From: Psammoneis japonica
Lineage: Eukaryota
Assembly: GCA_008632985.1 (NCBI GenBank)
Contig: QPGO01000163.1
Coordinates: 1 to 64,000 of the forward strand
DNA: 64,000 bases
Reading direction: 5' to 3'
Made by a program: the position numbers and the translations under genes. A model generated the notes under the pieces. It was not told the origin of the DNA. It was given only the letters and a program-made list of their open reading frames with translations, and ran no database searches. Positions 4,903-64,000 of this stretch are shown here, in pieces (the first letter of the stretch is position 1; each line of letters begins with the position of its first letter).

Positions 4903-5150
4903 AATGGGTGGAGTGTTGCGCATGTAGAAAAGGCACCAAAATGCAGGTGGGGGAGCTGTTGACTGGAAAAATCGTGGTTTTCGCGGCAAAGCCGCGTTTT
5001 TGCGCGAAAGCACAAAAACCCACGGGCCTTTTCGCGCGGCTTCGCCATGCAAAAGCACGAAAAGCACGCACGCCTCGTGCGGCTGCAGCAGAGCAATTTG
5101 TTGCACGAAATCGCACACGAGCAAAGCAGCGGCGGCCATGATGACACCAT

Positions 5151-6050
5151 CCGACATGCATGGCAAGAGAGCCCAAACAAGTGGGTTGCTGTTGTGCATT
5201 CAACATGTGTGCACTGCTGACATTGCCCTCGACATTACAACACCTTCAATTGTCATTTTCAGGGGGCTCCAAAAAACCGCCTTGTGGACCCGAGTCCGGG
5301 AGGAGTTCCATCTGGTGGCTTGCGCTTGGGCCGATCCGACATGTGTTGCAAGAGAGCCCAAACAAGCAGGTCGTTTTGTTGAATTCAAAATGTGTGCACT
5401 GCTGACATTGTCCTCGACATTGCCACACCTGCAATTGCTTTTTCCAGGGGGCTCCAAAAAACCGCCTCATGGACCCGAGTCCGGAGGAGTTCCTTCAGGT
5501 GGCTTGGGCCGATCCGACACAAATCTAAAGAGAGCCCACACAAGTGGGTCGTTTTGGTGAATTCAAAATGTGTGCACTGCTGATGTTGCCCTCGAAATTG
5601 CCACACCTGCAATTGTCATTTTCAGGGGGCTCCAAAAAACCGCCTTGTGGACCCGAGTCCGGAGGAGTTCCTTCAGGTGGCTTGGTCCGATCCGACACAT
5701 GTCGCAAGAGAGCCCAAACAAGCAGGTTGCTGTTGTGCATTCAATGTGTGTCTGCTGCTGACATTGCCCTCGACACTGCCATGCCTGCAATTGCTTTTTC
5801 CAGGGGGCTCCAAAAAAAGGCCTTGTGGACCCGAGTCCGGAGGAGTTCCTTCAGGTGGCTTGGGCCGATCCGACACACATCGTAAGAGAGCCCAAACAAG
5901 TGGGTCGCTTTGGTGAATTCAAAACATGTGTGCTGCTGACATTGCCCTCGACATTGCCATGCCTGCAAGTTGTTTTCAGGGTGCTCCAAAAAACCGCCTT
6001 GTGGACCCGAGTCTGGGAGGAGTTCCTTCTGGTGGCTTGGGCCGATCTTG
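5151..6050. repeat. Tandem repeat, ~178-bp unit, ~5 copies
   Basis: Recurring 'ccgaca...aagagagcccaaacaag...gggggctccaaaaaaccgcc...ggacccgagtccgg' starting near 5151, 5336, 5514, 5692 and 5870. Confidence 0.9.
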
Positions 6051-28540: not shown

Positions 28541-28946
28541 GATGCGCTCCAGCTCTGGGTGGGACCTCGCACTGCTGAGCTGTGTGACATCAATGGTTTT
28601 TTTATTACACCGCATGTTGCACACATGGAAAGGTGCGAGACTTTTGTGAAATTTTGAATCATTTTGTGGTGCACTTGTTGAGTGATCTCCGTGCCCAACA
28701 ACTTTTCACATTTTTTGTTGCAGCGCGATTCACTCTACAGCGTGTTTTAAGAATTGCGCAGGGCAGGCACATTTGCAAAAACGTCAAGTGGCAAGAGGCA
28801 CAATTGCACCACAAACTTGGTTGTTTGTTTGATGTTGAAGATGAGCACATCCATTGATCAAATTCTTGCACTCTGCGGAGCTCGCACGCAGAATTCTGCG
28901 GGCCCAATGTCTCACGGAGTCCCACCTGCTGGGGCTGGAGCGTGTC
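28541..28946 (+). mobile_element. ~400-bp MITE, family A (subfamily 2)
   Basis: Termini gatgcgctccagctctgggtgggac...gtcccacc..ggctggagcgtgtc; internal match to 56007-56384 in reverse; flanks aaaa/aaac. Confidence 0.75.
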
Positions 28947-40224: not shown

Positions 40225-40770
40225 CATTCTCATTTGCACTCCACAACTCTTGGCTCTGTGTCTCTTCTTCATGTTTCAGGTGGTTTGCAGCAAAGGTCCA
40301 AATTGCCGTGCTGAGGGTCCATCTTTTAGAATGCATTGACTGGTGTTGCAACGGTTGTGAAAACAGCAGCAGCTCACATTGCCTTGGCGCTTGCTCTGAA
40401 GACATTGTTCTTGCTCTGCAAGAGCACTCTTTTTGCCTGGCACAACCAAGGAACATCAGCAATGCTGCAATGAATGCAGCTGAAGAATGATGCTTTGCAT
40501 TTTCATCTGAAACAAAGAGTCTCCTGGTGTTGGCAACAGAAGACCCAACTGTTGCATGTGCAGAGGAGGAGTGCATTCCCAGCAATCACAAGGAAACATT
40601 CCACTGCACTTCAGTGTCTGATGCTTGTCAGATGCCAAACTGCTGGCACATTCCCATTGCAGCTGGAGACTGCTGTGATGGCATGAAGCATCTGTGCAGT
40701 GGTTTGTTTGATGGCACAAATGTTCACATCTTGAGGCATTTGAGGAGCGAGGAATTTGCACAGGATGCAT
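40225..40770 (+). pseudogene. Hypermutated 5' copy of the 48086 oxygenase/F-box/SUMO-like gene (or of a close paralog)
   Basis: Aligns to ~48000-48545; nearly all TA and CG are converted to TG/CA. Confidence 0.92.
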
Positions 40771-40974
40771 GCCTGGGATGTCCTTGAATGGGGGAGCTCT
40801 GGTCATTCCAATGAAGTGTCAGCTAAAAATGACAATGTTTTTTGGACAAACAATGAAAACAACATCAACAACCCATGGATGATGGGCGATGACAACAAGG
40901 GCACTTTGGCTTGCCCCAGGATGAAATGAACAGCCCAGCTGCTGAGGAAAAACATGTTAAAACAAGCAAGACAC

Positions 40975-47940: not shown

Positions 47941-48085
47941 TAGCGTGTTCTCTCAAAAGCTTCACAAATTGTCACGCAACACGCAACCGTTTCACCGTTC
48001 TCGTCATTTGAACTCCCACACCTGGCTCTGTGCCTCTTCTTTACATTTCATCTAGCTAGAGTTTGCAGCAAAGGTCCAAATTACC

Positions 48086-49684
48086 ATGCTGAGGGTCCAT
48101 CCGTTAGAAAGCATTGGCTGGTTTCGCGAGGGTCGCACCAACAGAAGAGGTTCACATTACCGTAGTGCTTGCTCCGAAGATATTGTTCTTGCTCTGCAAG
48201 AGCATTCTTTTTGCCTGGTGCAACCGAGGAACGTTAGTAATGCTGCGATGGATGTAGCTGAAGAACGAAGATTTGCGTTTTCATCTGAAACAAAGAGTCT
48301 CCTGATATCGGCAACAAGAGACCCAACTGCATGTGCAGAGGAGGGATACGTTCCCAGCAATCACAAGGAAATGTTCCACTTCACTTCAAAATCTGACTCT
48401 TGTCAGGTGCCGAACTACTGGCATATTCCCACTGCGGCTGGAGACTGCTATGACAGCATGAAGCGTCTATGTAGCGGTTTGTTTGATGGCATAAATGTTC
48501 ACGTCTTGAGGCATTTGAGGAGCAAGGAATTTGCACAGGATGCATTCCCAAACGACGATGAGTACCTCGCATGGATAAATGCACACAACGACTCGGACAA
48601 GCATCTCTTGACAAGCTTTCTGTACCACGAGTCCAATCCAGATCACCTCCATGCTGCTGCTCACGTTGACAGAGGCTTGATATCCGTGTGTGCCAATCCA
48701 AATGATCTGCAAGTTCGAGTCCGCGGCGAGTGGATTGATCTTGGTCCTCAGCCACCGGGTGTCTATGCTGTGTTATGCGGGTACACCCTCGAACGTGTTA
48801 CTGGAGGTGTATTCCGTGCCGTGAGTCACCGGGTTCAAAACCGAGGCGAACGACGCTCCCGCGTTTTCAAGGTCCGACTGGATCCCTCTCTTTTGGTACG
48901 ACCTGCCTCCGTGGTGGCGTTCGTGTCGCCTGCTCACAGAGCACACTTACCGCAAGACAACATTGGTGTACAGGGTGCGGTTCGCGTTGGTGAGCTCATG
49001 GAGCAATTCGATCGTTACTACACGAGCGTCAATGCACCCTCCAACAACAGAAATTTGCCACTGTTGAGCAACGGGCCAGGAACCCTTTCTGCAGGGCTTC
49101 CATCACCAGATGAGTCCGCAGGGATCCTTTCCACCCTTCCGATTGACCTCTTGCTTAGGGTTCTCGATTGGCTTCGTGATCTTGGTGATTTGGCTCGCCT
49201 GAGTCAGACATGTCAGTCCCTAAAACGCATTGCCGGGATGGAGGCTCTTTGCATCCCCGCAGCAGAGTCCTCTCATGTTGATTGGGGAGCTGCTCTCGAT
49301 CAGATTGATCTTGGCGTGCCTTCTCTCTCTAGACTACAGGATGACAATGCTGAATCAATGTCGCCTAGAGCTCTTTTAGCGTCCGTGTCAAATCGTTGGC
49401 TACCAATTCTTGGTGCTGAAATGACAGATAAGGAAGCAAGGGACAGCAGATTTCTTCAAATTCGATTTCGAGATATGACGGGAGAAGAGACTTTCTTCCG
49501 CATTCGATACAACACCAGAATGAATAGATTGATGATGAAGTATGCCCAGAGGAAAGGTGTGAGTGTTGGGTCCCTCCGTTTCCTTTGGGAAGGTGAGCGA
49601 ATTGAAGAAGACTGGACTTGCGCCAGTATGGAACTTCTCATGAACGATCAGGTTGATGCAGTGTTGGAACGGAGGGGAGATTAA
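48086..49684 (+). CDS. 2OG-Fe(II) oxygenase-like + F-box-like + C-terminal SUMO/Rad60-like domain protein (532 aa)
   Basis: HVDRGLISV...HRVQN...RRSRVF (HxD..H..RxS). LSTLPIDLLLRVLDWL..DLARLSQTCQSL. GEETFFRIRYNTRMNRLMMKYAQRKGVSVGSLRFLWEGERI...DQVDAVLERRGD. Confidence 0.8.
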   Translation: MLRVHPLESIGWFREGRTNRRGSHYRSACSEDIVLALQEHSFCLVQPRNVSNAAMDVAEERRFAFSSETKSLLISATRDPTACAEEGYVPSNHKEMFHFTSKSDSCQVPNYWHIPTAAGDCYDSMKRLCSGLFDGINVHVLRHLRSKEFAQDAFPNDDEYLAWINAHNDSDKHLLTSFLYHESNPDHLHAAAHVDRGLISVCANPNDLQVRVRGEWIDLGPQPPGVYAVLCGYTLERVTGGVFRAVSHRVQNRGERRSRVFKVRLDPSLLVRPASVVAFVSPAHRAHLPQDNIGVQGAVRVGELMEQFDRYYTSVNAPSNNRNLPLLSNGPGTLSAGLPSPDESAGILSTLPIDLLLRVLDWLRDLGDLARLSQTCQSLKRIAGMEALCIPAAESSHVDWGAALDQIDLGVPSLSRLQDDNAESMSPRALLASVSNRWLPILGAEMTDKEARDSRFLQIRFRDMTGEETFFRIRYNTRMNRLMMKYAQRKGVSVGSLRFLWEGERIEEDWTCASMELLMNDQVDAVLERRGD

Positions 49685-53700: not shown

Positions 53701-54738
53701 TTATAAAAAAATGTATCTCAAGCCAAGGATGCGGAACAATCTATTTAAAGATCAACGGCAGCAACCCTTGGTCGTGCCTTCCGCGCTAGGGAGCAGCTTG
53801 TTTTCTTCTCAAGCTGGTGGAAGTGCAATGAGGTGCTGATTGTTCCTTAGGCTAATGCAATTGTTTAGTACTATTTAAATATAAAATTCACAACAGTAAT
53901 CTCAAATAGGTGCTTTAGAGCTTGTCAAAGTTGAAAGCAGTGCAAGTCGTTCGTCTGCTTTCCCACAGGGAGTGTGAAGCTTTCTACTGCACTCAGGACG
54001 CCTGTGAGTGCTGCTTGCCATGCCACCATAGATGCAGTTGGCATTGGTGCAGTTGCCGGGGTTGCATACGGCAACGCTCATGGTTGAGATGCCGCATTGA
54101 GACGAGTAGAACTTTCGAGTATTTTTTTTGTTCCTCCCGTCGCACTCGACATCACCAAGGACAGACTGTTTAGATCGCGCGAAAGGGGCGCGCAGGGTAG
54201 AATTTTTGGCTCCGAAAATTCTACTGTGCCTTCTACCTGAGTGGAATAAACAGTGGATGTACGGTAGATCTTTTTAGAAGATGCCAACACCGTATTGACA
54301 TTTTTACATACGAGAATTCCACTTTCCAGTAGAAAAATACTACTTGGGTAGAATTTTGGGTGTAACGGCACTGTGCAGTGCCATGTGCGTGCTGATGACT
54401 GACACGACCCAATGAGCTTGCGTCATCAAGAATTATGCGAGGTCCGCAGAGCTCGACACATTGTTTCAAACACATGCAGTCTTGTGCAAACCTTCCTTCT
54501 TTTTTTTTTTGGAATTGTGCAAAGAAACAAACAAATGAAATTGGAACATCATGGCACCACACAAGGAAATTGACACTTTTTTTTTTCTTTGAAAAAAGAA
54601 AGAGGAGCCATGTGAGACAGCGCACCTTTTTTCAAAAAAAAAGCCAGGCTGTGTGGCACCAATCTGTGTGAATTTTTTGTGCATGTGGGGTGCTCTGTAA
54701 AATTTGCAGTGATTGATTTGCATTCACTCCAACACTCC

Positions 54739-54739
<1 letters not shown>

Positions 54740-54806
<67 letters not shown>

Positions 54807-54831
54807 CACACACACACCACACACACACACA

Positions 54832-54868
<37 letters not shown>
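54740..54868. repeat. Interrupted (CA)n microsatellite
   Basis: Direct inspection. Confidence 0.95.
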
Positions 54869-54870
<2 letters not shown>

Positions 54871-55384
54871 CGTGATCTCGATGACCTCAAATCAAAGCTT
54901 CAAGACTCTTCGGCTGACAGTGATTCTGCTGACAAAGACCAAGAAGAACCCCAACAAATGATTGATCACCCACATGATCTGGACACTTTGTGTGAATTTT
55001 CATGAGTGATTGTGTGAGAACCAAAATTTCGTCAACTTTTTGTGAGGAGAAATGTGTCAAGTGATTGTTGACAAACGACCTCACAACGAAAGAATGTTGT
55101 GCTTGTGGAAGAGACGTCCGTTCGGCAACGGCTGTTTTGCAAATGCAACAGCTGATTGTGCACTGCCAGCTGTCTGCTCAACCCATTTGCACCAAGCCAC
55201 GTAGAAAAATCACGCAGTGGAAATCCGGAAAATGCCGCAATCATGCGCAAAATGTGCCAGGACAGATGCTGTGGAATTGATGTCATTGTGTTCCTGCAGA
55301 TGTTTTTTTTTGATGCTTTGTGTGCTGATGTCATTGCCAGTTTGCTGGCGTCATTGCCAGTCGTGCTCAAATCATCGCCAACCG

Positions 55385-55502
55385 TGCTCAAATGTGCTCA
55401 AAAGTGCTCAAATGCTGCTCAAAATGCTCAAATGTGCTCAAATGCTGCTCAAATGCTCAAATGCTGCTCAAACAATGCTGCTTGTGCTCAAATGCTGCTC
55501 AA
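55385..55502. repeat. Short tandem TGCTCAAA-type repeats (also at 56528-56603)
   Basis: Direct inspection; the two arrays flank the MITE pair. Confidence 0.8.
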
Positions 55503-55567
55503 GCAATGAGGGCTCTCCTTGACATGACGACGCCGAATGAAGAAGAAGCAAGGCCAAGCGCATCTCA

Positions 55568-55963
55568 GACACGTTCCAGCTCTGGGTGGGACCTCGCACT
55601 GCTGAACTGTGACACAATTGTTTTTTGTCATCCGTCGCATGTTTCGCGCACACATTTCTGCGTGCTCCATTGTAAAAAATTGTTCCACACTGCCTGTTTT
55701 GCGAAGCCAAAGGCTTTCTGTTGTCCACACTCATGTCAACAAAAATGTGCTGGGTGCATTCTTCAATGTCTGAAGAACACACCCGGGCATGCTGCAAAGA
55801 ATGTGCTTCAAGTGTGGAGGAGGAGACACGTTCGCAAAATTGCCTCTTTTTCTGTTGGTGATCATTCGTGCATTCATTGCTTGACAATTTTACCGCAGAG
55901 CTCGCACGCAGAATTCTGCGGGCCCAATGTCACAAAAAGTCCCACCTGGGACTGGAACCCGTC
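55568..55963 (+). mobile_element. 396-bp MITE, family A (subfamily 1), TpA-converted
   Basis: GACACGTTCCAG...CTGGAACCCGTC with exact 4-bp TSD CTCA/CTCA. Confidence 0.9.
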
Positions 55964-56006
55964 CTCACTGAGCAGTGTGATGCAGCCTGTCTCATCTTTG
56001 CTTTGA

Positions 56007-56384
56007 GATGGGCTCCAGTCCTGGGCGGGACTTTTTGTGACATTGGGCCCGCAGAATTCTGCGTGCGAGCTCTGCAGTGTGAGAATTTAATTTGTCTTCA
56101 ACATCAAATGTGCGACCAAGTTTGTGGTGCAATTTTGCCCATCGCATGTTGAGGTTTTCGCAAATGTGCCTGCCCTGCACCATTCATGAGACATTTGAGA
56201 ATGGCGCAGAAGAAAAAAATGTCAAAAGTTGTTGGACGGATCGCTCAACAAGTGTGCCACAAAATGATGCAAAATTGTGCCGAAGTCACGTAGAAATGTG
56301 CGTGCGCGACATGCGGCGCAATCCAAAAAACTGTCGATGTCACAGTTCAGTGGTGCGAGGTCCCACCTGGAGCTGGAACTCATC
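56007..56384 (-). mobile_element. MITE family A (subfamily 2), inverted
   Basis: GATGGGCTCCAG...CTGGAACTCATC, flanks TTGA/TTAA. Confidence 0.8.
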
Positions 56385-58092
56385 TTAAATCAACCTGGCT
56401 GGCTGGAGCAGCTCTCAGTGGCAGCAGCAGTGGTGCCAGCACAACAACTCGGTTTTCATGCCGGTGTGTGCACTCTACTTGGCTCACGCAAGTTGATCAC
56501 TTTTTGGATCGTGTGCTTGAACACACGTGCTCAAATGTGCTCAAATTGCTCACGCGTGCTCAAACTTGCTCAAAAGTGCTCAAATGTGCTCAAAAGTGCT
56601 CAAAAGAATCGCCAAAATTGTTGGCGATCGAAATGAGCAGGGTTGGTGATTGAAATGAGTTTGGTTGACGAATGTCTGTTGTGCGTGCATGCACACACAT
56701 GTGATTTTCCTGTCAATTGATGATGAGCTGACAGCTGCGCGCGCCATGCATGTGACAAATTGCAGCGTCTGTCCTGGCACGTTTTGCACACAATCACGGC
56801 ATCTTCCAGTGGATGGCAATTCTGTGCTGCAGAAAGCTGCAATGCCTGGCATGACAAAAGGAGAATTGGGTTGAGTGATCATCACCCTGTTTCGCACCAG
56901 AGCCTGCGTGATTCTGCACATGGCGTCATGATCACTTCAGAGCTCAGTTTGGTTTTACCGCGGGATTCCCCAAAATTCCCCAGGATTGCCACCTTTTGCC
57001 ATGATTTTCCACGGGAAGCATGATTTCCCGAGGAATCGCCACGAATGCCGTCTCGTCATGTGTGTGCTTGAGCCACGAATGTGGGTTGATTTGTTGGTGA
57101 TTCCCCGTGCTTCCCCTCTCATGCATTTCTGCGCCTTCCACGTGCCGGGACGCATGCGGAGCCACACACCGACCGACCGCAACAAAAAAATGGGCAACAC
57201 GCCATGGCGCTTTCGTCTCCCATTTATGACGGCTTTTGTCAAACAATGATGACGCCAGTTGATCCAATGAACAACACTGATTGATTGTGATCTGCAGAAT
57301 GAAGATGAGATGAAGCAGAACAGATTGTGTGCAGAACAGCAGTGCAATTGATCGTTGGTCGTCAGTTGTTCTTTTGTCGTGCAATCACAAATGCAAGCCA
57401 TGAGGCGCACAGCAAAGGCCAAGGCAAAAGCAGAGTCATGTGCAGCCAACGATGTCAATGTGGCGGATTGAACAGTCACCCTCATTCTTCCAATTCACAC
57501 GTCTTGTGTGCAGAATGAAGGGGATCGTGCAGATCACTCTTTTGTCATGCATTCAGAAAGGCAAGCCACAAGGCGCCCAGTGTGAAGGATGAGGCAAAAG
57601 CAGAACCGCACATGATTGACAAAAAATGGCGGATTGATTGACAATGTTTGTTCTCCCTTTGGCCTGTCTCATGTGCAGAATGCAGTGCGTCATTGTTTTT
57701 TCCTTCTTGTGTCGTGTGGTCACAAATGCAAACCACAACGGCTCTAGAGCAAAGGCCGAGGCAAAGACAGAGCCGCACGTGAGCAATGTTGATGTGCGCG
57801 ATTTAATGGTGAAGTTCTTTCTTCCCTTGCTCTGCCACAAGGGGGCGCTTTGTGTCAATTTGTCGATGAATCCGTCATGGTCGTCGCCCGGCTGGATGAA
57901 AATAAGAAAAAGGCACACCGGCCTAACCCAAATCAAACGGGAGTTGCCGCAATGCACTCGTTTTTTGTTCCCCTCCCCGAGCCCTTTTTGGTCGTTCCTT
58001 CCCGCTAAATTGCCCTCATTTCCCGGGAATTTCCCAAAAGGGTAAGGTAATTCCCCCTCACCCTTGCCATTTTGGGGAATCAGCACTCATTT

Positions 58093-58299
58093 GGGGGAAG
58101 ACTCCAGCCAGCAGCTGGGTGAAAAAAGTCTTCTCGTCAGTGCGTTTGGGGGTTTTGCAAGTGCAATTTTTACGTGCGCAAAAAGAAGACGAGTCTGTCC
58201 AGCGTTCATCAAAACCCCCTAACGCACAGATTGACAGACTCTTTCAGGACAATTTCTACACAAAATTCTTCAGCCACCAGCTGGCTGGAGACTTCCCCC
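58093..58299. mobile_element. MITE family B, inverted relative to 47189-47416
   Basis: TIRs GGGGGAAGACTCCAGCCAGC / GCTGGCTGGAGACTTCCCCC; internal match to the 47 kb copy. Confidence 0.75.
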
Positions 58300-58363
58300 A
58301 TAAAATCATTCATGGTCAGTCCCACGCTCTGCCGACATTACCTTTTGGCTAACCCTCTTGCGA

Positions 58364-60877
58364 ATGAGCGGACAACCAATTATCCTTGGCAAACGAAAAA
58401 GGAATAAAGAGGAGGATCCAGCTGAAATGATGCAGCAGGTCTCAATCGAAAATGGTGAAGAAAGTGCACCGGAATCGATGGAGCTCGTAGTGGACACTGC
58501 CGTGAGCGTCATAGATGACTCGACCACAGTCATCGCCTCCGAAGTTGTGCAGGAATGGTTAAAGGACGTGAAAGACCCAGCCGCAAAGAGTGCTGTGGAA
58601 GACAAGCAGCAGCAAATAATTGAAGGTTTGACGTCACTAGCGAATGAAAAAGAATGGTTGTCAAACAACCGCGACCTCAGGATTCTCGACATCAAGTCCG
58701 CAGTTTTTCTTGCTACGCTGCAGCTGCCACAAAACGTAGCCCAAGACTTAACCTTTCGCTTTGTGGATGCTATCCAAGAAAGCAAAAAAACCGAGTGGGG
58801 AAAACGCGTGGCGACTCTGGACTACAAAATTGAAGAGATGGCGCTTTCGCACACTCATGACGTCAAACAGTTTTTGAAACAAGCCGTGATAGTGTCTAAA
58901 TGGTATGAAGAGAACAACCAGTTACAGGACGCCCCGTATTTTTGCTTGATTCAATCAAGTGGAATGGGCAAGACCAAGATCATGTACCATGCCTGCAAGG
59001 AATTAGAGAAGAAGCAAAGGTGGCGGTGCTCCCTGGTACTCCCGAGTCAGATCCAGACGGGAAGTTTATCGCCTTCAAATGCACAAAACGTCTTCAAAAA
59101 GCGAATAAGCCTCGAAGGAGTTCTTACAAAAAACACACCCGTTAGCACAATAGTTGGTCAAGGCTTTGCGAAACTGGATGAACTGGTGGCTGCAACTGTT
59201 GGAAAGGAGGAAATCACGGAAACTCCCCAAAACGACTATGTCTTTCTTTGCTTTGACGAAGCACAGGCTTATTTGGATTCGTTTGAGGAAACAAACGAAT
59301 CAGATGAAAAGTTGAAAACAGAGCACCCGTCACTACTTTTCAGGATTATTCGTTTGTGGCTGCGAAAGAAGCGATCTGATGGCGTAAGAATTGTTGCTTG
59401 TTTTGCCGGGACAACTGCAAATTTGAATAGTATTCGCTTCGAGTTTGATGATGACAAAAGATTGGTGAATACAGCTCCTTCACGTGATTGGAAGGCTAAG
59501 GATGCTAGCTTCTACAAAAAAGGATCTGAGGTCTTTCCGGTGTTCACAGTGACGACCACTATGGGGTGTATCACCAAGACGAAAGAAGGAAGCGAATACA
59601 AAAAGGCAATTCGTTACGGGCGCCCTCTGTTTGCAGTTTTGGATGCCAACAATGAACTTGAAGCGAAGCTGCAGAATATTATTGGTCGTATGCTCTTAAG
59701 TAAGTTGGATTGGGAGAACAGCTTGCCCGCATGTCTCAGTGTTCTTGCTACTAGGGTGCAAATGGGCCAAACGACCTTTTCAATCGCTTCCGATCTCGTT
59801 GCCAACGGATATGCAAATCTTACCTCGGTCTCATCGGGTTCTGCCAGAATGTGCTTTATGACCGATCCCGTGTGCGCCCGTCTTGCTATGCGCTTGATGG
59901 ATCCAGAGTTCGCATGCGGGCTATTCAATGGGAAGAAACCACAGTGGTGGGTTGGGAAGATGGCTAAATTATTCTCTCGGGGTATCTGTAGTCCCGAGAA
60001 GGGTGATTTTGGTGAAGTGATGGTTGCCTTTTACTTGTTGCTCTGTGGGGATGAGTTACGTCGACCCATGCGAGAAGAAACGTTCTCTGTTTCATTGGAC
60101 GATTGGCTTGGTACTTTGCAGTGCGGAGGGCACCCCAAAAATCCCGTTGTGCCTTCTTCAAATGCCAGGGTGACGGTCAACTTCATTCAAGTCTGTCGCA
60201 ACTACCTTCGTTCTTACGGAGTCAGTTGGGAGGGTTTGAAGGACCAAGGCTTCTTGAAGTATGTATACGAATCCGCTACCGCTTTTTATGTTTTTGGAGG
60301 CTGCCCTTTAATTGATATGGCAGGTGCCATCCGAATTTACAATTCAATCACGAGTGAGATATCCTTTGCACCGCTTTTCATTTCCATCAAATCACATCAC
60401 TATTTTTCACCGAAACGAGCGAAACAAGAATGCGAAAAGATGTTGGACAGGGCTACCGAGAGTGGCTGTACGCAGGCGTTGTGTCTCCTCATTGTATTTG
60501 GGTCGCCAACGTCGTCTACCGATGAGGTCTATGCTTTTAACGGGTGTTTGGCCGAAAAAGTCACTGGAAATAAACCTGTGGCTTGTATTATTCGCATCCC
60601 GGACGATGATTCTTTTGGGGTAACCGATGCTTTTGTCAAGCTTACATCTGGCGGAGCAGCGGTTGGTGAGGTTATGGCGTCGCATCCTTATATTCGTGCG
60701 AACATTGGAGTGCCAATGGTGCTTGAACCCCAATTCGCTCTCCGACGAGGGGAGAAAGATGAAGAAGCAAAGGACATTTTGACGACTCTTTCCAATGAAC
60801 TCAGAAATGAAGCCAGACCTACCGTAACACCAGTGGGAAATCCGCGAGTAAGTAGTTTGGACGGTCAGCTGCAATGA
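58364..60877 (+). CDS. Intronless P-loop NTPase with possible C-terminal restriction-endonuclease-like domain (Crinkler/CR-NTPase-like)
   Basis: Walker A 'IQSSGMGKTK', Walker B 'FLCFDEAQ', 'KGDFGEVMV', and 'PLIDMA...LFISIKS'; 837 aa open frame with normal TpA content. Confidence 0.65.
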   Translation: MSGQPIILGKRKRNKEEDPAEMMQQVSIENGEESAPESMELVVDTAVSVIDDSTTVIASEVVQEWLKDVKDPAAKSAVEDKQQQIIEGLTSLANEKEWLSNNRDLRILDIKSAVFLATLQLPQNVAQDLTFRFVDAIQESKKTEWGKRVATLDYKIEEMALSHTHDVKQFLKQAVIVSKWYEENNQLQDAPYFCLIQSSGMGKTKIMYHACKELEKKQRWRCSLVLPSQIQTGSLSPSNAQNVFKKRISLEGVLTKNTPVSTIVGQGFAKLDELVAATVGKEEITETPQNDYVFLCFDEAQAYLDSFEETNESDEKLKTEHPSLLFRIIRLWLRKKRSDGVRIVACFAGTTANLNSIRFEFDDDKRLVNTAPSRDWKAKDASFYKKGSEVFPVFTVTTTMGCITKTKEGSEYKKAIRYGRPLFAVLDANNELEAKLQNIIGRMLLSKLDWENSLPACLSVLATRVQMGQTTFSIASDLVANGYANLTSVSSGSARMCFMTDPVCARLAMRLMDPEFACGLFNGKKPQWWVGKMAKLFSRGICSPEKGDFGEVMVAFYLLLCGDELRRPMREETFSVSLDDWLGTLQCGGHPKNPVVPSSNARVTVNFIQVCRNYLRSYGVSWEGLKDQGFLKYVYESATAFYVFGGCPLIDMAGAIRIYNSITSEISFAPLFISIKSHHYFSPKRAKQECEKMLDRATESGCTQALCLLIVFGSPTSSTDEVYAFNGCLAEKVTGNKPVACIIRIPDDDSFGVTDAFVKLTSGGAAVGEVMASHPYIRANIGVPMVLEPQFALRRGEKDEEAKDILTTLSNELRNEARPTVTPVGNPRVSSLDGQLQ

Positions 60878-61339
60878 GCATGCAAGCAGCACAGCGGGGT
60901 GTTCTTCAAGACACCTGGATTTACGTAGATGCTGCAGCACATTGCTTAAGTTAATTAGGACAAAAGATTTCACAGAAATGAGAAAAAAAGAAGTCCCTTG
61001 TAGTCCTCAACTTCTTGGCAGGTCAGAATTTGTTGTAATGAAAACTGCAGCAGAGCAAAAAAAAGCGTTTTGCTGTGAGCTTCAAATGTTTGGAATCCTG
61101 TCAATGTGCCGCAATCCCTCTGTCGGGACCACTTGATTTATCAACTTAATTGTAGATGAGCTGTCAATGAGAAAGGGATTTGGCCCTGGCGGGGAACACC
61201 CAAAATTGCTCCAGCACAGATTGCAGGCAGAGAACATTCTTCGACCCAGCAAAAACTGCAAGAAACATGGTCTCTGTTTGCAGCTGTGAACCTCTGTGTT
61301 GCAATGTTGCAAAGGTCAGAAGAGCTGGCTGCACCAGCA

Positions 61340-61470
61340 AGTGCATGTGAACATCCCATGGTGGCAGCAGAGCATCTCTTGTGTGGGTCATTGGCATGGG
61401 CAGCATCAGTGCAGCCAACCAACAGGAAACGATGCTTGGCCTCTAACCATTCAAAATCATGTGGCGCCTC
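61340..61470 (-). mobile_element. Ty1/copia RNase H N-terminal fragment
   Basis: 'LLVGCTDAAHANDPHKRCSAATMG' resembles LVGY.DAAHAND..KRRSTTG. Confidence 0.6.
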
Positions 61471-62149
61471 TTGCCATTGGCGTGAAAGTCTCAGGAGTTG
61501 ACAGCCCACATTGCAAGTGATTTTCAGTGTGCTTGGCAAGTTGCAGCTGCCATGGTGGGATGGAAAAAATTAACGTCAGCCAACTGACAGTTTTTGGGTT
61601 GATGACATGTGCAACCAAATGAGCTGCAACCACATCACTGCCCACAGTGCCAAACACTGCTCAATTCAGCAAATTGGCATCTGTTCTGTGCCAACTGGCC
61701 TGCACTGATTTAAGTCTCTCCAGACATTGAATCTTTTCCCGATGTCCATTGCACTGCCCATGCCAGTGCCACATGTTTTTCTTGTGCTTTGAGTTCTTCT
61801 CTTCCCAATGGAGACAACGCTGCTTTCTCACCAACACAGCATTTTGGGGCCTGTGCCTCAGCAGATTTGTCCACCAAAGCAACACTTTCCACCCAGCAAT
61901 GAGAATCTGCAGCTGCAACACATTTGTTGATGACTCTGCTGAAAAATGGAGCCAAGACAGACATGCTGGGGCACAGCAGTTTAAAATCCTCACACGAATT
62001 TTCGTGTGTTTTTTTGTTGAAAAGGAGAGGGCAGTTCACTGCTGTCAAGAGCCAGACATGCACCACAGCTCAAGTTGACCATGGGAGGAATGGCTGCGCA
62101 CCAACGGGTGTGCCTTCGATTCCCTTGGAGGTGATTTCAACTCATGTTG

Positions 62150-64000
62150 TCAGGTGACAAACAAAATCCAAGCCGATGTCATTGGGATTTCTGAAACTTG
62201 TTTGGACATGTCCCAACCTCAGATTGCTCAGACATGTCAATCAGTGGTCCAAAACACATTGCACTGCAGTCGTGTTGCCTTCTCAGCATCGTCACCAGTG
62301 TTCACAACTCCCTGCAAACCAGGAGGCACAGTCATCACATCCTGAAACTCCATTGCTTCCCGGTTTCACACAAAGAGTGAGGACTCACCAGGCAGATGGT
62401 CAACTCAGATGTTCAACGGGAAACAGGGAAAACAGGTGATGTTCATTTCTTGCTGTTGTGTGTGCCGGAACAATTCTTCCACCGCGGGAAAAACTGCCGC
62501 TTGTGCCCAACAAGTCAATTTGCTCCAACAGCAAGGTCGCGCACAACCTGAGCCAAGGCGGGCCTTTTGTTCTGATCTTTCCCACATCCTGGAAGCTTTT
62601 CTGGACCATCCTCACTGTGAAGTTGTTCTCTTTGGAGATTTTAGTGCAGATTTTTGTCTCATGACACTGACCCATTGGCTTGCATGGCCGCACGTTTCAA
62701 CCTGTCTGATGTTGTGTTCCAACAGATGCAAGAAATGGATTTTGCAGCTTGTCTCTGAGGATCTTGTCATCTTGACCACGTGTTGGCGACTCCAGGGGAA
62801 CTTAATTTGGTGTTGCAATGTGGTTGCAAACCGTTTGGATGCCGCGTCTCTTCCGATCACCTCGCGTGTTTTGTGGATTTCGATGCGGAAAAGCTTTTTG
62901 GCAACTTGCAGCTAGACACTCCAAAACCCACTCAGCAAACTCTCCAAACGAATTCTCCACAACAAGTTGCAACACATTTGGATGCCATTGGTCCCGTGTT
63001 AGAGAGTGGGAATGTTCTTCAGTGTAGCATGTTGCTTCTTGAGGCCACAACCCCCGATCATCTTTTGGCGCGTTCCAGCTCTAGGTGGGACCTCGCACTG
63101 CTGAACTGTGACACAATTATTTTTTATCATCCGTCGCATGTTTCGCACGTACATTTCTACGTGTTCCATTGTAAAAAATTGTTCCACACTGCCTGTTTTG
63201 CGAAGCCAAAGGCTTTCTGTTATCTAAATTTATGACAATAAAAATGCGCTGGGTGTGTTCTTTAATGTCTGAAGAACACACCCGGGCATGCTGTAAAGAA
63301 TGTACTTCAAGTGTGGAGGAGGAGATACGTTCGCAAAATTGCCTCTTTTTCTGTTGGCGATAATTCATGTATTCATTGCTTGACAATTTTACTGCAGAGC
63401 TCGCACGTAGAATTCTACGGGCCCAATGTCACAAAAAGTCCCACCCAGGACTGGAACCCGTCTTTTAGCGGAACGCTTGGATCGTGACATGACAAAGTTT
63501 TGTGTCTCTGCTGCCAAACAATGCCGACAGCATCATGAAGCTGCTTGGTCCCTCAAGTTGGCTGATCTGCGGAAGAAAGTCTTTGTTCTGTCTCGACTGC
63601 TGTCCATGTGCAAAAACCGAGTGCACACTTCATGGCACCGATTGTTCGAGAATGATGCAGAGTGCGAGAGTCTTTCACGCTGCTGTCTGCTCAAGCAGAT
63701 TGTCAATCGGCTCTCTGTCAAGCTCAGTTGGAATGCAAACAAATGGCTTGTGAGAGCCTGATGCACAGGGAAAAAGAAAGAGACAAATGCATCGCAGCAC
63801 CAGATTTGGAGAACACACCGGAAGCCGCCAAAGAGTCCAAGATCCTGCGGAATCTCAGGTGCGCTGAAGAAATGACCTGAGTGTTCTGCAAAACAAATGC
63901 CTTTGCAGACAAAGACAACTCCAGCGCAAGCAACATCCAGGTCCCTGCTGATCCTTCTGAAAATCCTAAAACCTGTGACTCCTGGGTGACAGTTGACTGC
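62150..64000 (+). mobile_element. Decayed LINE-type retrotransposon, APE-like endonuclease region, interrupted by a MITE
   Basis: 'ADVIGISETC', 'KPGGT', 'PGRWS', 'VVLFGDFSA', 'LDHVL', 'SSDHLACFVDFD'; the frame 'DHLL|AERLDRD' resumes across the MITE. Confidence 0.7.
63067..63462 (+). mobile_element. 396-bp MITE, family A (subfamily 1), largely unconverted (young)
   Basis: GGCGCGTTCCAG...CTGGAACCCGTC, TSD TTTT/TTTT; collinear with 55568-55963. Confidence 0.9.

Follow-up and report, generated by a model that had tools for sequence, protein, structure and literature searches.

The window, which is the whole stretch of 64,000 nucleotides from the diatom Psammoneis japonica analysed here, contains two closely similar MITE copies. 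One has been stripped of nearly all TA dinucleotides, whereas the other has kept them within a TA-stripped and apparently LINE-like element. The question raised by this locus is which process removed the TA steps, and whether it acted before or after the copies had inserted. The two copies, A and B, are as follows, with O/E denoting the observed/expected dinucleotide ratio.

55568-55963, + strand: MITE copy A, TA-stripped, with 2 TA, a TA O/E of 0.08 and 17 CG
55564-55567 and 55964-55967: target-site duplication of A, CTCA/CTCA, perfect
63067-63462, + strand: MITE copy B, TA-retaining, with 19 TA, a TA O/E of 0.62 and 18 CG
63063-63066 and 63463-63466: target-site duplication of B, TTTT/TTTT, perfect

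Alignment of A against B is gap-free, with 363/396 identical positions, 33 differences and no indels. The pair of 396-bp copies given in a preliminary description is thus confirmed with its coordinates, and the four string pairs quoted there all read as quoted in both copies. Single transitions with TA in B and CA or TG in A account for 16 of the 33 differences, while the opposite direction is found at none (binomial p = 3e-5). Taking B as the TA-bearing partner, TA has become CA at 9 sites of A and TG at 7. The remaining differences comprise 4 in two CA-versus-TG double sites, 7 of CG type, 3 other transitions and 3 transversions, leaving just 6 positions that involve neither TA nor CG. Altogether, 17/19 TA dinucleotides of B are altered in A, against 46/376 of the other dinucleotides (Fisher p = 5e-13). 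One of the 19 TA of B, at 63361-63362, is not ancestral: it stems from a transversion seen in only about 1% of the read depth of the family.

The pair itself is real, but the family is larger in the window than the two copies first described, with four members instead of two.

56007-56384, - strand: family member C, with the termini of A and a different interior; stripped, 2 TA
56003-56006 (TTGA) and 56385-56388 (TTAA): target-site duplication of C, TTAA/TCAA in element orientation
28541-28946, + strand: family member D, of a C-like subfamily and 75% identical to C; stripped, 4 TA
Flanks of D (target-site duplication): AAAA and AAAC

C is placed tail to tail with A at a distance of 43 bp. Inverted terminal matches over the first 30 bases number 20 in A, 21 in B, 19 in C and 17 in D, with mismatches that are mostly transitions, and 19-20 over the first 25 bases in A and B. 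A 4-bp duplication lies beside each copy and is perfect for A and B. The longest ATG-initiated frame reaches 55-83 aa, leaving no transposase coding capacity, and metagenome pattern scans for an autonomous partner with the same termini gave 0 matches. Contigs were assembled from exact 31-letter words of sequencing run X2, and 5886 contigs were placed on the window at 80% likeness or more. Over X2 contigs, word depth sums to 30,626-85,603 in bins of the MITE as against about 66-204 in those of the host of B, a measure of depth and not of copy number. Family abundance from read depth is likewise about 10^3 copy-equivalents, not equal to a count of copies. Both A and B belong to an apparently abundant non-autonomous element of 396 bp that has terminal inverted repeats (TIRs) and a 4-bp target-site duplication. 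The family resembles MITEs in its length of 378-406 bp, its TIRs, its 4-bp duplications, the absence of a long ORF and its very high read depth. It differs from piggyBac, which duplicates TTAA, in having CTCA, TTTT, TTAA/TTGA and AAAA/AAAC.

The surroundings of the two copies are the following.

61000-63066, + strand: TA-stripped host left of B; TA O/E 0.10, CG 0.36, CA 224 versus TG 215
63467-64000, + strand: the same host element right of B; TA O/E 0.06, continuing past the window end
54501-58000: TA-stripped block with A and C; TA O/E 0.03-0.13 per 500-bp bin, CG 0.2-0.87
58304-60877, + strand: 857-aa ORF between two stripped blocks; TA O/E 0.50, normal

Excision of 396+4 bp, that is B and its duplication, rejoins the host reading frame over 200 aa. 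A Pfam search with the degraded ORFs of the host gave no match. A phmmer search with the ORF at 62346-62915 retrieved 249 proteins at E <= 1e-3, and this ORF corresponds to the N-terminal Exo_endo_phos endonuclease of proteins of 1.8-2.1 kaa. Among 12 scanned homologues, Exo_endo_phos lies above the curated cut-off in 6 and below it in 4 more, and the long homologues have sub-threshold matches only to RVT_1 (E 9e-4, 1/6), RVT_3 and zf-RVT. The Exo_endo_phos homology and these weak RVT_1, RVT_3 and zf-RVT matches suggest a LINE-like host, with an APE-type endonuclease recognised through its homologues.

Within this relic of TA O/E 0.06-0.10, B forms a TA island. As had been described, it keeps TA inside the stripped element, with 19 TA in 396 bp against 16 in the 2605 bp of its flanks (61000-63066 and 63463-64000; p = 7e-9). 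Its TA O/E matches that of genic bins (0.4-0.9). A is as stripped as its neighbourhood, where TA O/E is 0.02 on the left and 0.07-0.10 on the right. The block around A and C also contains an (AC)n run, a GTGCTCAAA minisatellite and a 167-bp repeat; TG exceeds CA over 54901-58000 (360 versus 294, p = 0.011), for which we offer no explanation. The normal TA content of the ORF at 58304-60877 marks sharp edges of the stripped blocks. This ORF is multi-copy yet unstripped between two stripped blocks, so repetition alone does not predict targeting.

The whole window was scored in 500-bp bins (n=125). TA O/E is bimodal, being below 0.2 in 54/125 bins and at least 0.35 in 63, and saturated depletion (TA O/E 0.0-0.1) covers 54/125 bins, or 43%. 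The stripped blocks contain the LINE-like relic, MITEs and tandem repeats; TA content is normal in genic ORFs. Of 9 stripped blocks, 8 show no significant difference between CA and TG counts. We pooled four pairs, each combining a sequence that keeps TA with one that is stripped, namely B/A, 27581/29754, 27818/45570 and the gene 48004-48548 versus 40230-40773. In these pairs A>G occurs at 56/134 TpA sites and at 38/694 sites of other contexts (Fisher p = 2e-25), and C>T at 41/125 CpG sites and at 9/258 CpA sites, the latter being the rarest transition class. Single TA steps run in one direction in all four pairs (16:0, 16:0, 7:0 and 16:0). In the gene pair, the member that keeps TA is intact, encodes 542 aa with 2OG-FeII_Oxy, F-box and ubiquitin-like domains, and has Tyr codons TAC/TAT that read TGC/TGT in the stripped copy. 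The process is a TpA-specific, strand-symmetric transition of TpA to CpA or TpG with sharp boundaries. The CA/TG balance of the stripped blocks, together with the occurrence of the change in a DNA transposon, a tandem array and a gene fragment, indicates that the process acts on DNA. CG depletion is nested within it: all 26 CG-poor bins are TA-poor too, a further 28 TA-poor bins keep a CG O/E of at least 0.35, and CG-poor bins are absent among the 71 whose TA O/E is at least 0.2. Stripped blocks have lost TAA and TAG stops, so that spurious ORFs run on for long stretches in them, 55329-56006 being an example, and gene prediction can be misled.

The two halves of the target-site duplication of C, TTGA and TTAA, differ by one TA/TG difference, so this change arose after insertion. 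Across the 5 units of a tandem array, both CA and TG occur in 7 columns, and no single tree fits their splits. CA-versus-TG double sites number 8 between C and D and 14 between the array units, and contigs of two other runs, X3 and X4, keep TA where C reads CA and D reads TG. Conversion following insertion, as proposed in the preliminary description, is borne out by the duplication of C, and its independence in each copy by the 7 incompatible array columns and the X3/X4 contigs. These observations support conversion of resident DNA after insertion, copy by copy. The letters of one further site, CCAGG in B (63445-63449) and CTGGG in A (55946-55950), are correct as reported, but they do not prove the ancestral CTAGG read from them. 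Alone they have no power to separate a TA from a CG ancestor, since CG decays to CA or TG likewise. The matching site in the 5' TIR of B is CTAGG, and CG stands at none of the 8 instances of this site although CG is otherwise well kept, so that a TA ancestor is favoured only indirectly.

The proposal that the MITE pair serves as an internal clock is not supported. A has lost 16-18 of 18-20 ancestral TA (about 90%) and B 0-2 (at most 10%), although private non-TA changes are similar, at least 2 in A and at least 3 in B. This inequality suggests that conversion depends on locus or episode and not on elapsed time. At 17 of its 19 TA sites B keeps a TA that A does not have, although the host around it is stripped, which is consistent with non-constitutive, locus-specific or episodic activity. 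The TA retention of B may alternatively reflect a very recent insertion.

The contrast between A and B might have been inherited, with A already TA-poor at insertion as a copy of a stripped master and the two copies belonging to two lineages. The per-copy comparison rests on four copies (A, B, C and D), the only individually readable ones of the family, and letters private to A or B (55894, 63227 and 63362) are common to about 2-8 copy-equivalents of depth, indicating that sub-lineages exist. We nevertheless regard inheritance as unlikely, as the flanks of A are no less stripped than A itself, converted and unconverted copies occur in both subfamilies (A versus B; C and D versus the X3/X4 contigs), the duplication of C displays conversion after insertion, and a source element carrying so many mutations would be expected to transpose poorly. 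The direction might also be reversed, a RIP-like process having turned CpA/TpG into TpA in B from an original state seen in A; any single difference of TA versus CA or TG is symmetric and blind to direction. To this reading we give almost no credence, because C>T at CpA is so rare, TA sits in the intact conserved gene of the gene/copy pair, and a TA O/E of 0.0-0.1 in 54/125 bins is no unmutated baseline beside genic bins at 0.4-0.9. ADAR-type hyperediting of RNA, fixed by reverse transcription, would yield a LINE born stripped and a MITE never exposed. In its favour, B sits in a retroelement relic, and a preference of ADAR for U 5' of the edited A is stated in a preprint (bioRxiv 10.64898/2026.01.13.699255). 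Such an origin is still highly implausible: editing of the sense strand predicts TG only, whereas CA and TG are balanced in the host; MITEs A, C and D, unit-specific array sites and duplication bases are all converted; and strand-symmetric conversion is seen here in single-locus DNA that was not retrotransposed.

A technical origin deserves the same scrutiny. If modified bases in repeats were miscalled at TA and the consensus chose a strand arbitrarily, random CA/TG outcomes and regional blocks would be expected, and the platform of the assembly and of runs X1, X2 and X4 is not on record. However, X2 contig 10 (depth 64.7) covers 61599-63098 and contig 12 (62.6) covers 63434-64000, with one difference each, so the stripped host is repeated and both junctions of B are bridged at a single-copy depth of about 63-65. 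X1, X2 and X4 come from one sample, perhaps the source of the assembly, and this check is accordingly not fully independent. Single-contig differences in single-copy stripped DNA number 6, all at CG or TA sites as in real polymorphism (5 of CG type and 1 of TA type, the latter at 62914, where the window and an X2 contig differ as TA/TG). Moreover, a 396-bp TA-keeping island inside a stripped block is hard to obtain by regional error, the N gaps of the scaffold appear typical of short-read scaffolding, and in Bigelowiella natans Illumina sequencing yielded this signature as well (bioRxiv 10.64898/2026.01.13.699255). We consider an artefact very unlikely, and the earlier argument against a regional one is upheld by the X2 contigs, which reproduce both the stripped sequence and the B junctions.

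We propose that an in-place conversion of TpA to CpA or TpG, acting on diatom repeat blocks by locus or episode, produced the contrast between A and B, an explanation that we hold to be probable. The process would target the resident chromosomal DNA of repeat blocks, with a chemistry read as A-to-G on either strand in about equal choice, and would run to saturation and halt at sharp boundaries. A would have been converted in place along with the 3.5-kb block around it. For B, the LINE-like host would have been converted first and the MITE inserted later, to be hit at most 2 times. The process would fire per locus or per episode and keep no steady clock, and slower CpG decay would follow within the same blocks. 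By analogy with what is proposed for B. natans, adenine deamination to inosine in DNA would be the likeliest mechanism, and the targeting of loci may serve genome defence. We see about an even chance for the broader claim that a diatom possesses a TpA-specific A-to-G hypermutation system on DNA, probably based on adenine deamination and fired by locus or episode, which erases nearly all TA of transposon blocks well ahead of CpG decay and is the same kind of defence as that recently observed by experiment in the chlorarachniophyte B. natans.

Finding the B. natans signature at saturation in a diatom, where it marks transposons, MITEs, tandem repeats and a gene fragment, points to a genome defence of wider occurrence among eukaryotes, opposite to fungal RIP in that TA is removed and not created. 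If true, the system is ancient in stramenopile-alveolate-rhizarian (SAR) lineages or has arisen convergently, and the MITE family, with its roughly 1000 copy-equivalents, is a natural series of dated insertions recording when and where it fires. To composition the MITE pair adds the direction of change, its timing relative to insertion and the apparent switching between loci or episodes. Diatoms are culturable and transformable, so the enzyme and the targeting signal are open to direct search.

Our literature search retrieved no report of TpA-specific hypermutation in diatoms; the one description so far of selfish DNA hypermutated at TpA comes from a preprint of 2026 on a rhizarian alga (bioRxiv 10.64898/2026.01.13.699255). 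There, 230/231 mutations in Illumina-sequenced mutation-accumulation lines of B. natans, in two regions of viral origin, are A>G or T>C, and every one of these is at TpA; TpA-poor, CpA+TpG-rich clusters of its genome are enriched for RT and DDE domains, and Mettrop et al. propose adenine-to-inosine deamination in DNA (bioRxiv 10.64898/2026.01.13.699255). The diatom window likewise has transitions at TpA on both strands in sharply bounded foreign or selfish DNA, and long-term TpA-poor, CpA+TpG-rich clusters that include RT- or endonuclease-bearing sequences. Activity in B. natans is described there as non-constitutive, and our window is consistent with episodic activity. The systems differ in lineage, a chlorarachniophyte (rhizarian) there and a diatom (stramenopile) here, and in target, giant-virus and virophage inserts there as against transposon relics, a MITE family, tandem repeats and a gene fragment here. 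The NCLDV region of B. natans has a Rho of 0.45, a moderate depletion, whereas depletion here is near saturation in 43% of bins. De novo events were recorded in its mutation-accumulation lines, whereas the diatom process is known from sequence comparison alone. In the diatom, depletion is also coupled to nested CpG decay.

Fungal RIP changes C to T mainly at CpA and enriches TpA. It shares with the present process a dinucleotide-specific, saturable inactivation of repeats and selfish DNA that leaves block-wise compositional scars. Here, by contrast, TpA is lost through A>G changes, and one multi-copy ORF has escaped. With C>T at CpA at 9/258 and repeats depleted of TpA, the signature of fungal RIP is absent. 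ADAR and APOBEC act on RNA or single-stranded cDNA and leave strand-biased scars in retro-copies. Both resemble the present case in deaminase-type transition clusters against selfish elements, and ADAR also in preferring U or T 5' of the edited base, but here resident DNA, a DNA transposon among it, carries the scars, and they are strand-symmetric. CpG decay as known from 5-methylcytosine deamination in methylated transposons has its counterpart in the CG>TG/CA changes of the same blocks (41/125), yet these form a separate, slower layer, as TA loss extends to bins that keep CG.

Alignment of the two 396-bp MITE copies A and B was gap-free and revealed 363 identical and 33 differing positions, in agreement with the places given to them in the preliminary description, whose quoted strings from both copies all match the sequence. 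The family has four members in the window, rather than two:

55568-55963 (+), MITE copy A
63067-63462 (+), MITE copy B
56007-56384 (-), family member C
28541-28946 (+), family member D, of the same subfamily as C
61000-63066 and 63467-64000, TA-stripped (TA-depleted) putative LINE-like relic, host of B

Copy A contains 2 TA and 17 CG dinucleotides, and copy B contains 19 TA and 18 CG. The differences between them fall into five classes.

Differences between copies A and B
TA in B, CA or TG in A (single transitions): 16; reverse, 0
CA-versus-TG double sites: 4 positions in two sites, 55757-55758 and 55947-55948
CG-type: 7, of which 3 keep CG in A and 4 keep it in B
Other transitions: 3
Transversions: 3

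The 16:0 split of the TA steps has a binomial p of 3e-5. Of the 19 TA dinucleotides of B, 17 are changed in A, whereas other dinucleotides are changed in 46 of 376 cases (p = 5e-13). The TA-biased difference between the copies is real and highly non-random, and the two MITEs serve well as an internal control for a striking process with one precedent.

The four copies share termini of about 110 bp on the left and 75 bp on the right, with a different interior in C and D, and their terminal inverted repeats have 17-21 matches in the first 30 bases. Perfect 4-bp target-site duplications surround A (CTCA) and B (TTTT), and the longest ATG-initiated frame in any copy is 83 aa. Summed contig depth in X2, a public sequencing run whose contigs were compared to the window, is 30,626-85,603 in the MITE bins versus about 66-204 in the host, although depth does not equal copy number. 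Therefore, based on termini, duplications, short frames and read depth, MITE is a fair name. In X2, 5886 contigs align at 80% likeness or more, and together with the depth this suggests a family size of the order of 10^3 copy-equivalents. Metagenome scans with IUPAC patterns of the conserved MITE termini gave 0 matches. Diverged pieces of the family matching 63132-63365 were found in X3, a marine-sediment metagenome run of another study, together with a 151-bp exact match to an 857-aa ORF (60002-60152), as a small share of words, so that this organism, or one closely related to it, is present in that marine-sediment habitat.

Copy C lies in the opposite orientation to A, tail to tail and 43 bp apart. 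The pair is flanked symmetrically, at 55227-55472 and 56526-56807, by minisatellites of the GTGCTCAAA type and by an inverted-repeat pair of 45 nt (82% complementary), so that A and C may belong to a larger structure of about 1.6 kb. In the stripped block around them TG exceeds CA (360 vs 294, p = 0.011).

With B and one copy of its duplication removed (400 bp), the host frame runs uninterrupted for 200 aa; this is of only moderate weight, since stop codons are scarce in TA-free DNA. Pfam searches of the degraded host ORFs gave no relevant family, even at E up to 10. The ORF at 62346-62915 matched 249 proteins by phmmer at E <= 1e-3; among 12 matches scanned, Exo_endo_phos was above the curated cut-off in 6 and below it in 4 more. 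In the long matches (1.8-2.1 kaa) this domain is N-terminal, with RVT_1, RVT_3 and zf-RVT sub-threshold. Judged from these protein matches, the host of B is likely a LINE-like retroelement, the RT part of which would fall past the window end.

The TA content of the window is bimodal. Among 125 N-free 500-bp bins, 54 fall below a TA observed/expected ratio (O/E) of 0.2, many of them to 0.00-0.05, and 63 reach at least 0.35. The stripped bins show a CA+TG O/E of 1.5-2.2, and TA is anticorrelated with CA+TG (Spearman rho = -0.81). Copy B keeps its TA within the stripped host, as first described, with an O/E of 0.62 against 0.10 and 0.06 in the flanks (19 TA in 396 bp vs 16 TA in 2605 bp, p = 7e-9). 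Copy A is stripped like its surroundings (0.08 vs 0.02 and 0.07-0.10). Genic ORFs lie in TA-normal bins; among them are those for an L-aspartate oxidase (best matches diatom proteins, at 50-66% identity), a CTP synthase, a DUF6824 protein and a 2OG-Fe(II) oxygenase/F-box/ubiquitin-like protein. The diatom matches and the DUF6824 protein speak against an origin of the window from Bigelowiella natans, a reading that is rejected. The loss of TAA and TAG leaves long stop-free frames in the stripped blocks, for example the 225-aa frame at 55329-56006 (+) that spans copy A, which gene finders would probably report as false ORFs. Each of the 26 CG-poor bins is also TA-poor, 28 more TA-poor bins retain a CG O/E of at least 0.35, and none of the 71 bins with a TA O/E of at least 0.2 is CG-poor. 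CpG loss is thus nested in TA loss, and therefore TA stripping came earlier or was much faster, which suggests fast stripping followed by slow CpG decay.

The same asymmetry was found in three further TA-normal/stripped repeat pairs of the window (27581/29754, 27818/45570 and 48004-48548/40230-40773), with single TA steps of 16:0, 7:0 and 16:0. The last pair is a clean polarity control. The segment 48004-48548, with 19 TA and 18 CG, covers the 5' part of an intact gene of 542 aa whose product carries 2OG-Fe(II) oxygenase, F-box and ubiquitin-like domains; its stripped copy at 40230-40773, 83% identical, contains 1 TA and 4 CG and differs by 16 TA>CA/TG and 16 CG>CA/TG steps. Tyrosine codons TAC/TAT of the gene are TGC/TGT in the copy, and this fixes the direction as TA to CA/TG. 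Transition classes were then pooled over these three pairs and B/A.

Transitions pooled over the four TA-keeping/stripped pairs
A>G at TpA: 56/134 sites
A>G in other contexts: 38/694 sites (p = 2e-25)
C>T at CpG: 41/125 sites
C>T at CpA: 9/258 sites

A RIP-like process, running in the reverse direction, is ruled out by these classes, A>G at TpA being frequent and C>T at CpA rare. GC-biased gene conversion as the cause is likewise rejected, because A>G outside TpA (38/694) is not raised over C>T outside CpG (30/554). RNA editing fixed by retrotransposition would act on one strand of a transcribed element. In 8 of the 9 stripped blocks, among them the retroelement host (224 vs 215), CA and TG counts show no significant difference, and the conversions in A comprise 9 to CA and 7 to TG. 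This balance, together with a converted DNA transposon and converted tandem-array units, rules out such editing and places the process on chromosomal DNA. No significant strand-coordinated clustering of conversions was found in runs tests (7 vs 8.9, 7 vs 8.5, 4 vs 3.9 and 7 vs 9.0 expected), and no neighbour-base preference is evident around converted TA.

The preliminary description held that conversion follows insertion and proceeds independently in each copy, and both points are borne out. The two sides of the target-site duplication of C are TTGA and TTAA, and a TA/TG difference therefore arose after insertion. In a 178-bp tandem array of 5 units at 5149-6047, where TA is almost gone and CG well kept, 7 columns contain both CA and TG, and the unit groupings that they imply are mutually incompatible. 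Two adjacent stretches of the array hold 14 CA-vs-TG double sites, about the number that we infer if a normal density of TA was resolved independently and at random to CA or TG. Between C and D there are 8 such double sites, one of which is still TA in an X3 contig, and a contig of the run X4 retains TA where C reads CA or TG. Therefore both subfamilies include converted and unconverted copies, with CA/TG choices made copy by copy, and no fixed division into TA-rich and TA-poor subfamilies sharing their changes was found among the window copies and the X3 and X4 contigs.

A site reading CCAGG in one copy and CTGGG in the other had been taken to imply ancestral CTAGG. The strings are correct, but the pair alone is no proof, because an ancestral CG could decay to the same CA/TG pair. 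The mirror site in the 5' inverted repeat of B is CTAGG, and CG is read at this site in none of its 8 occurrences, one per terminus in the four copies, while the copies keep most CG elsewhere; an ancestral TA is thus favoured indirectly. If the ancestor was TA, B took at least one hit. C and D do not polarise the double site 55757-55758, their subfamily aligning too poorly with that of A and B in the interior.

The suggested use of the pair as a clock was overstated, as was this site, while the order of events, the independence and the artefact control were right. One TA of B stems from a transversion in the B lineage, at position 63362; C makes up 99% of the family depth there. Excluding it, there were 18-20 ancestral TA sites, of which 16-18 were lost in A and 0-2 in B. 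Only 6 differences between the copies are neither TA nor CG, and where an outgroup copy or family depth permits polarisation, at least 2 private non-TA changes fall in A and at least 3 in B. We infer that TA conversion in A exceeded background by about two orders of magnitude or more. A uniform clock does not fit such unequal TA loss despite similar background change, which is consistent with a switch tied to locus or episode. In the simplest history, the host would have been stripped first and B inserted later, with the process essentially off at its locus since. It is also possible that B was inserted very recently from a rare sub-lineage. Among the contig joints listed, none is an empty site of B, which bears neither way on insertion polymorphism.

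Between two stripped blocks lies the 857-aa ORF at 58304-60877 (+), of normal TA content (O/E 0.50) and with no Pfam family. Several paralogues are suggested by its depth in X2 (280-720) and by contigs that diverge from it (127 other letters in 831), and as this multi-copy ORF is unstripped, repetition alone does not trigger stripping. The run X1 has depth in 12 of 30 bins, ten at 58140-61079 over the ORF and two faint ones over copy B. Atlas look-alikes of the ORF are hypothetical proteins, most often of oomycetes and fungi (score 0.94), and include a Crinkler-domain cluster (score 0.88).

A regional artefact, against which the preliminary description had argued, is made unlikely by two X2 contigs that repeat the stripped host and cross both B junctions, each with one difference from the window: contig 10 (61599-63098, depth 64.7) and contig 12 (63434-64000, depth 62.6). 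X1, X2 and X4 are from one sample and may be the assembly source, making this check not fully independent. Among the differences listed, six single-contig X2 differences fall in single-copy stripped DNA (56438, 56893, 56918, 56925, 62914 and 63796), of which five are CG to CA/TG and one, at 62914, is TA to TG. These are as expected for real segregating mutations and may be allelic variants from the same two processes, TA conversion and CpG decay.

Full-text literature searches found no report of a TpA-hypermutation signature in diatoms, and a single paper with this signature: Mettrop et al. (bioRxiv 10.64898/2026.01.13.699255), who observed it in B. natans mutation-accumulation lines. There, 230 of 231 mutations in two viral-origin regions were A>G or T>C, all 230 on TpA, at a rate of about 6e-7 and in some lines only. 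In addition, the B. natans genome contains clusters poor in TpA and rich in CpA+TpG, in which RT, endonuclease-RT and DDE domains are enriched, and an ADAT2-like DNA adenine deaminase is proposed (bioRxiv 10.64898/2026.01.13.699255). By analogy, the mechanism in P. japonica would be adenine deamination in DNA. The two systems share the signature, strand symmetry and bounded targeting of selfish DNA, and may share non-constitutive behaviour, whereas the present case differs in its diatom lineage, the kinds of target, the degree of saturation and the nested CpG decay.
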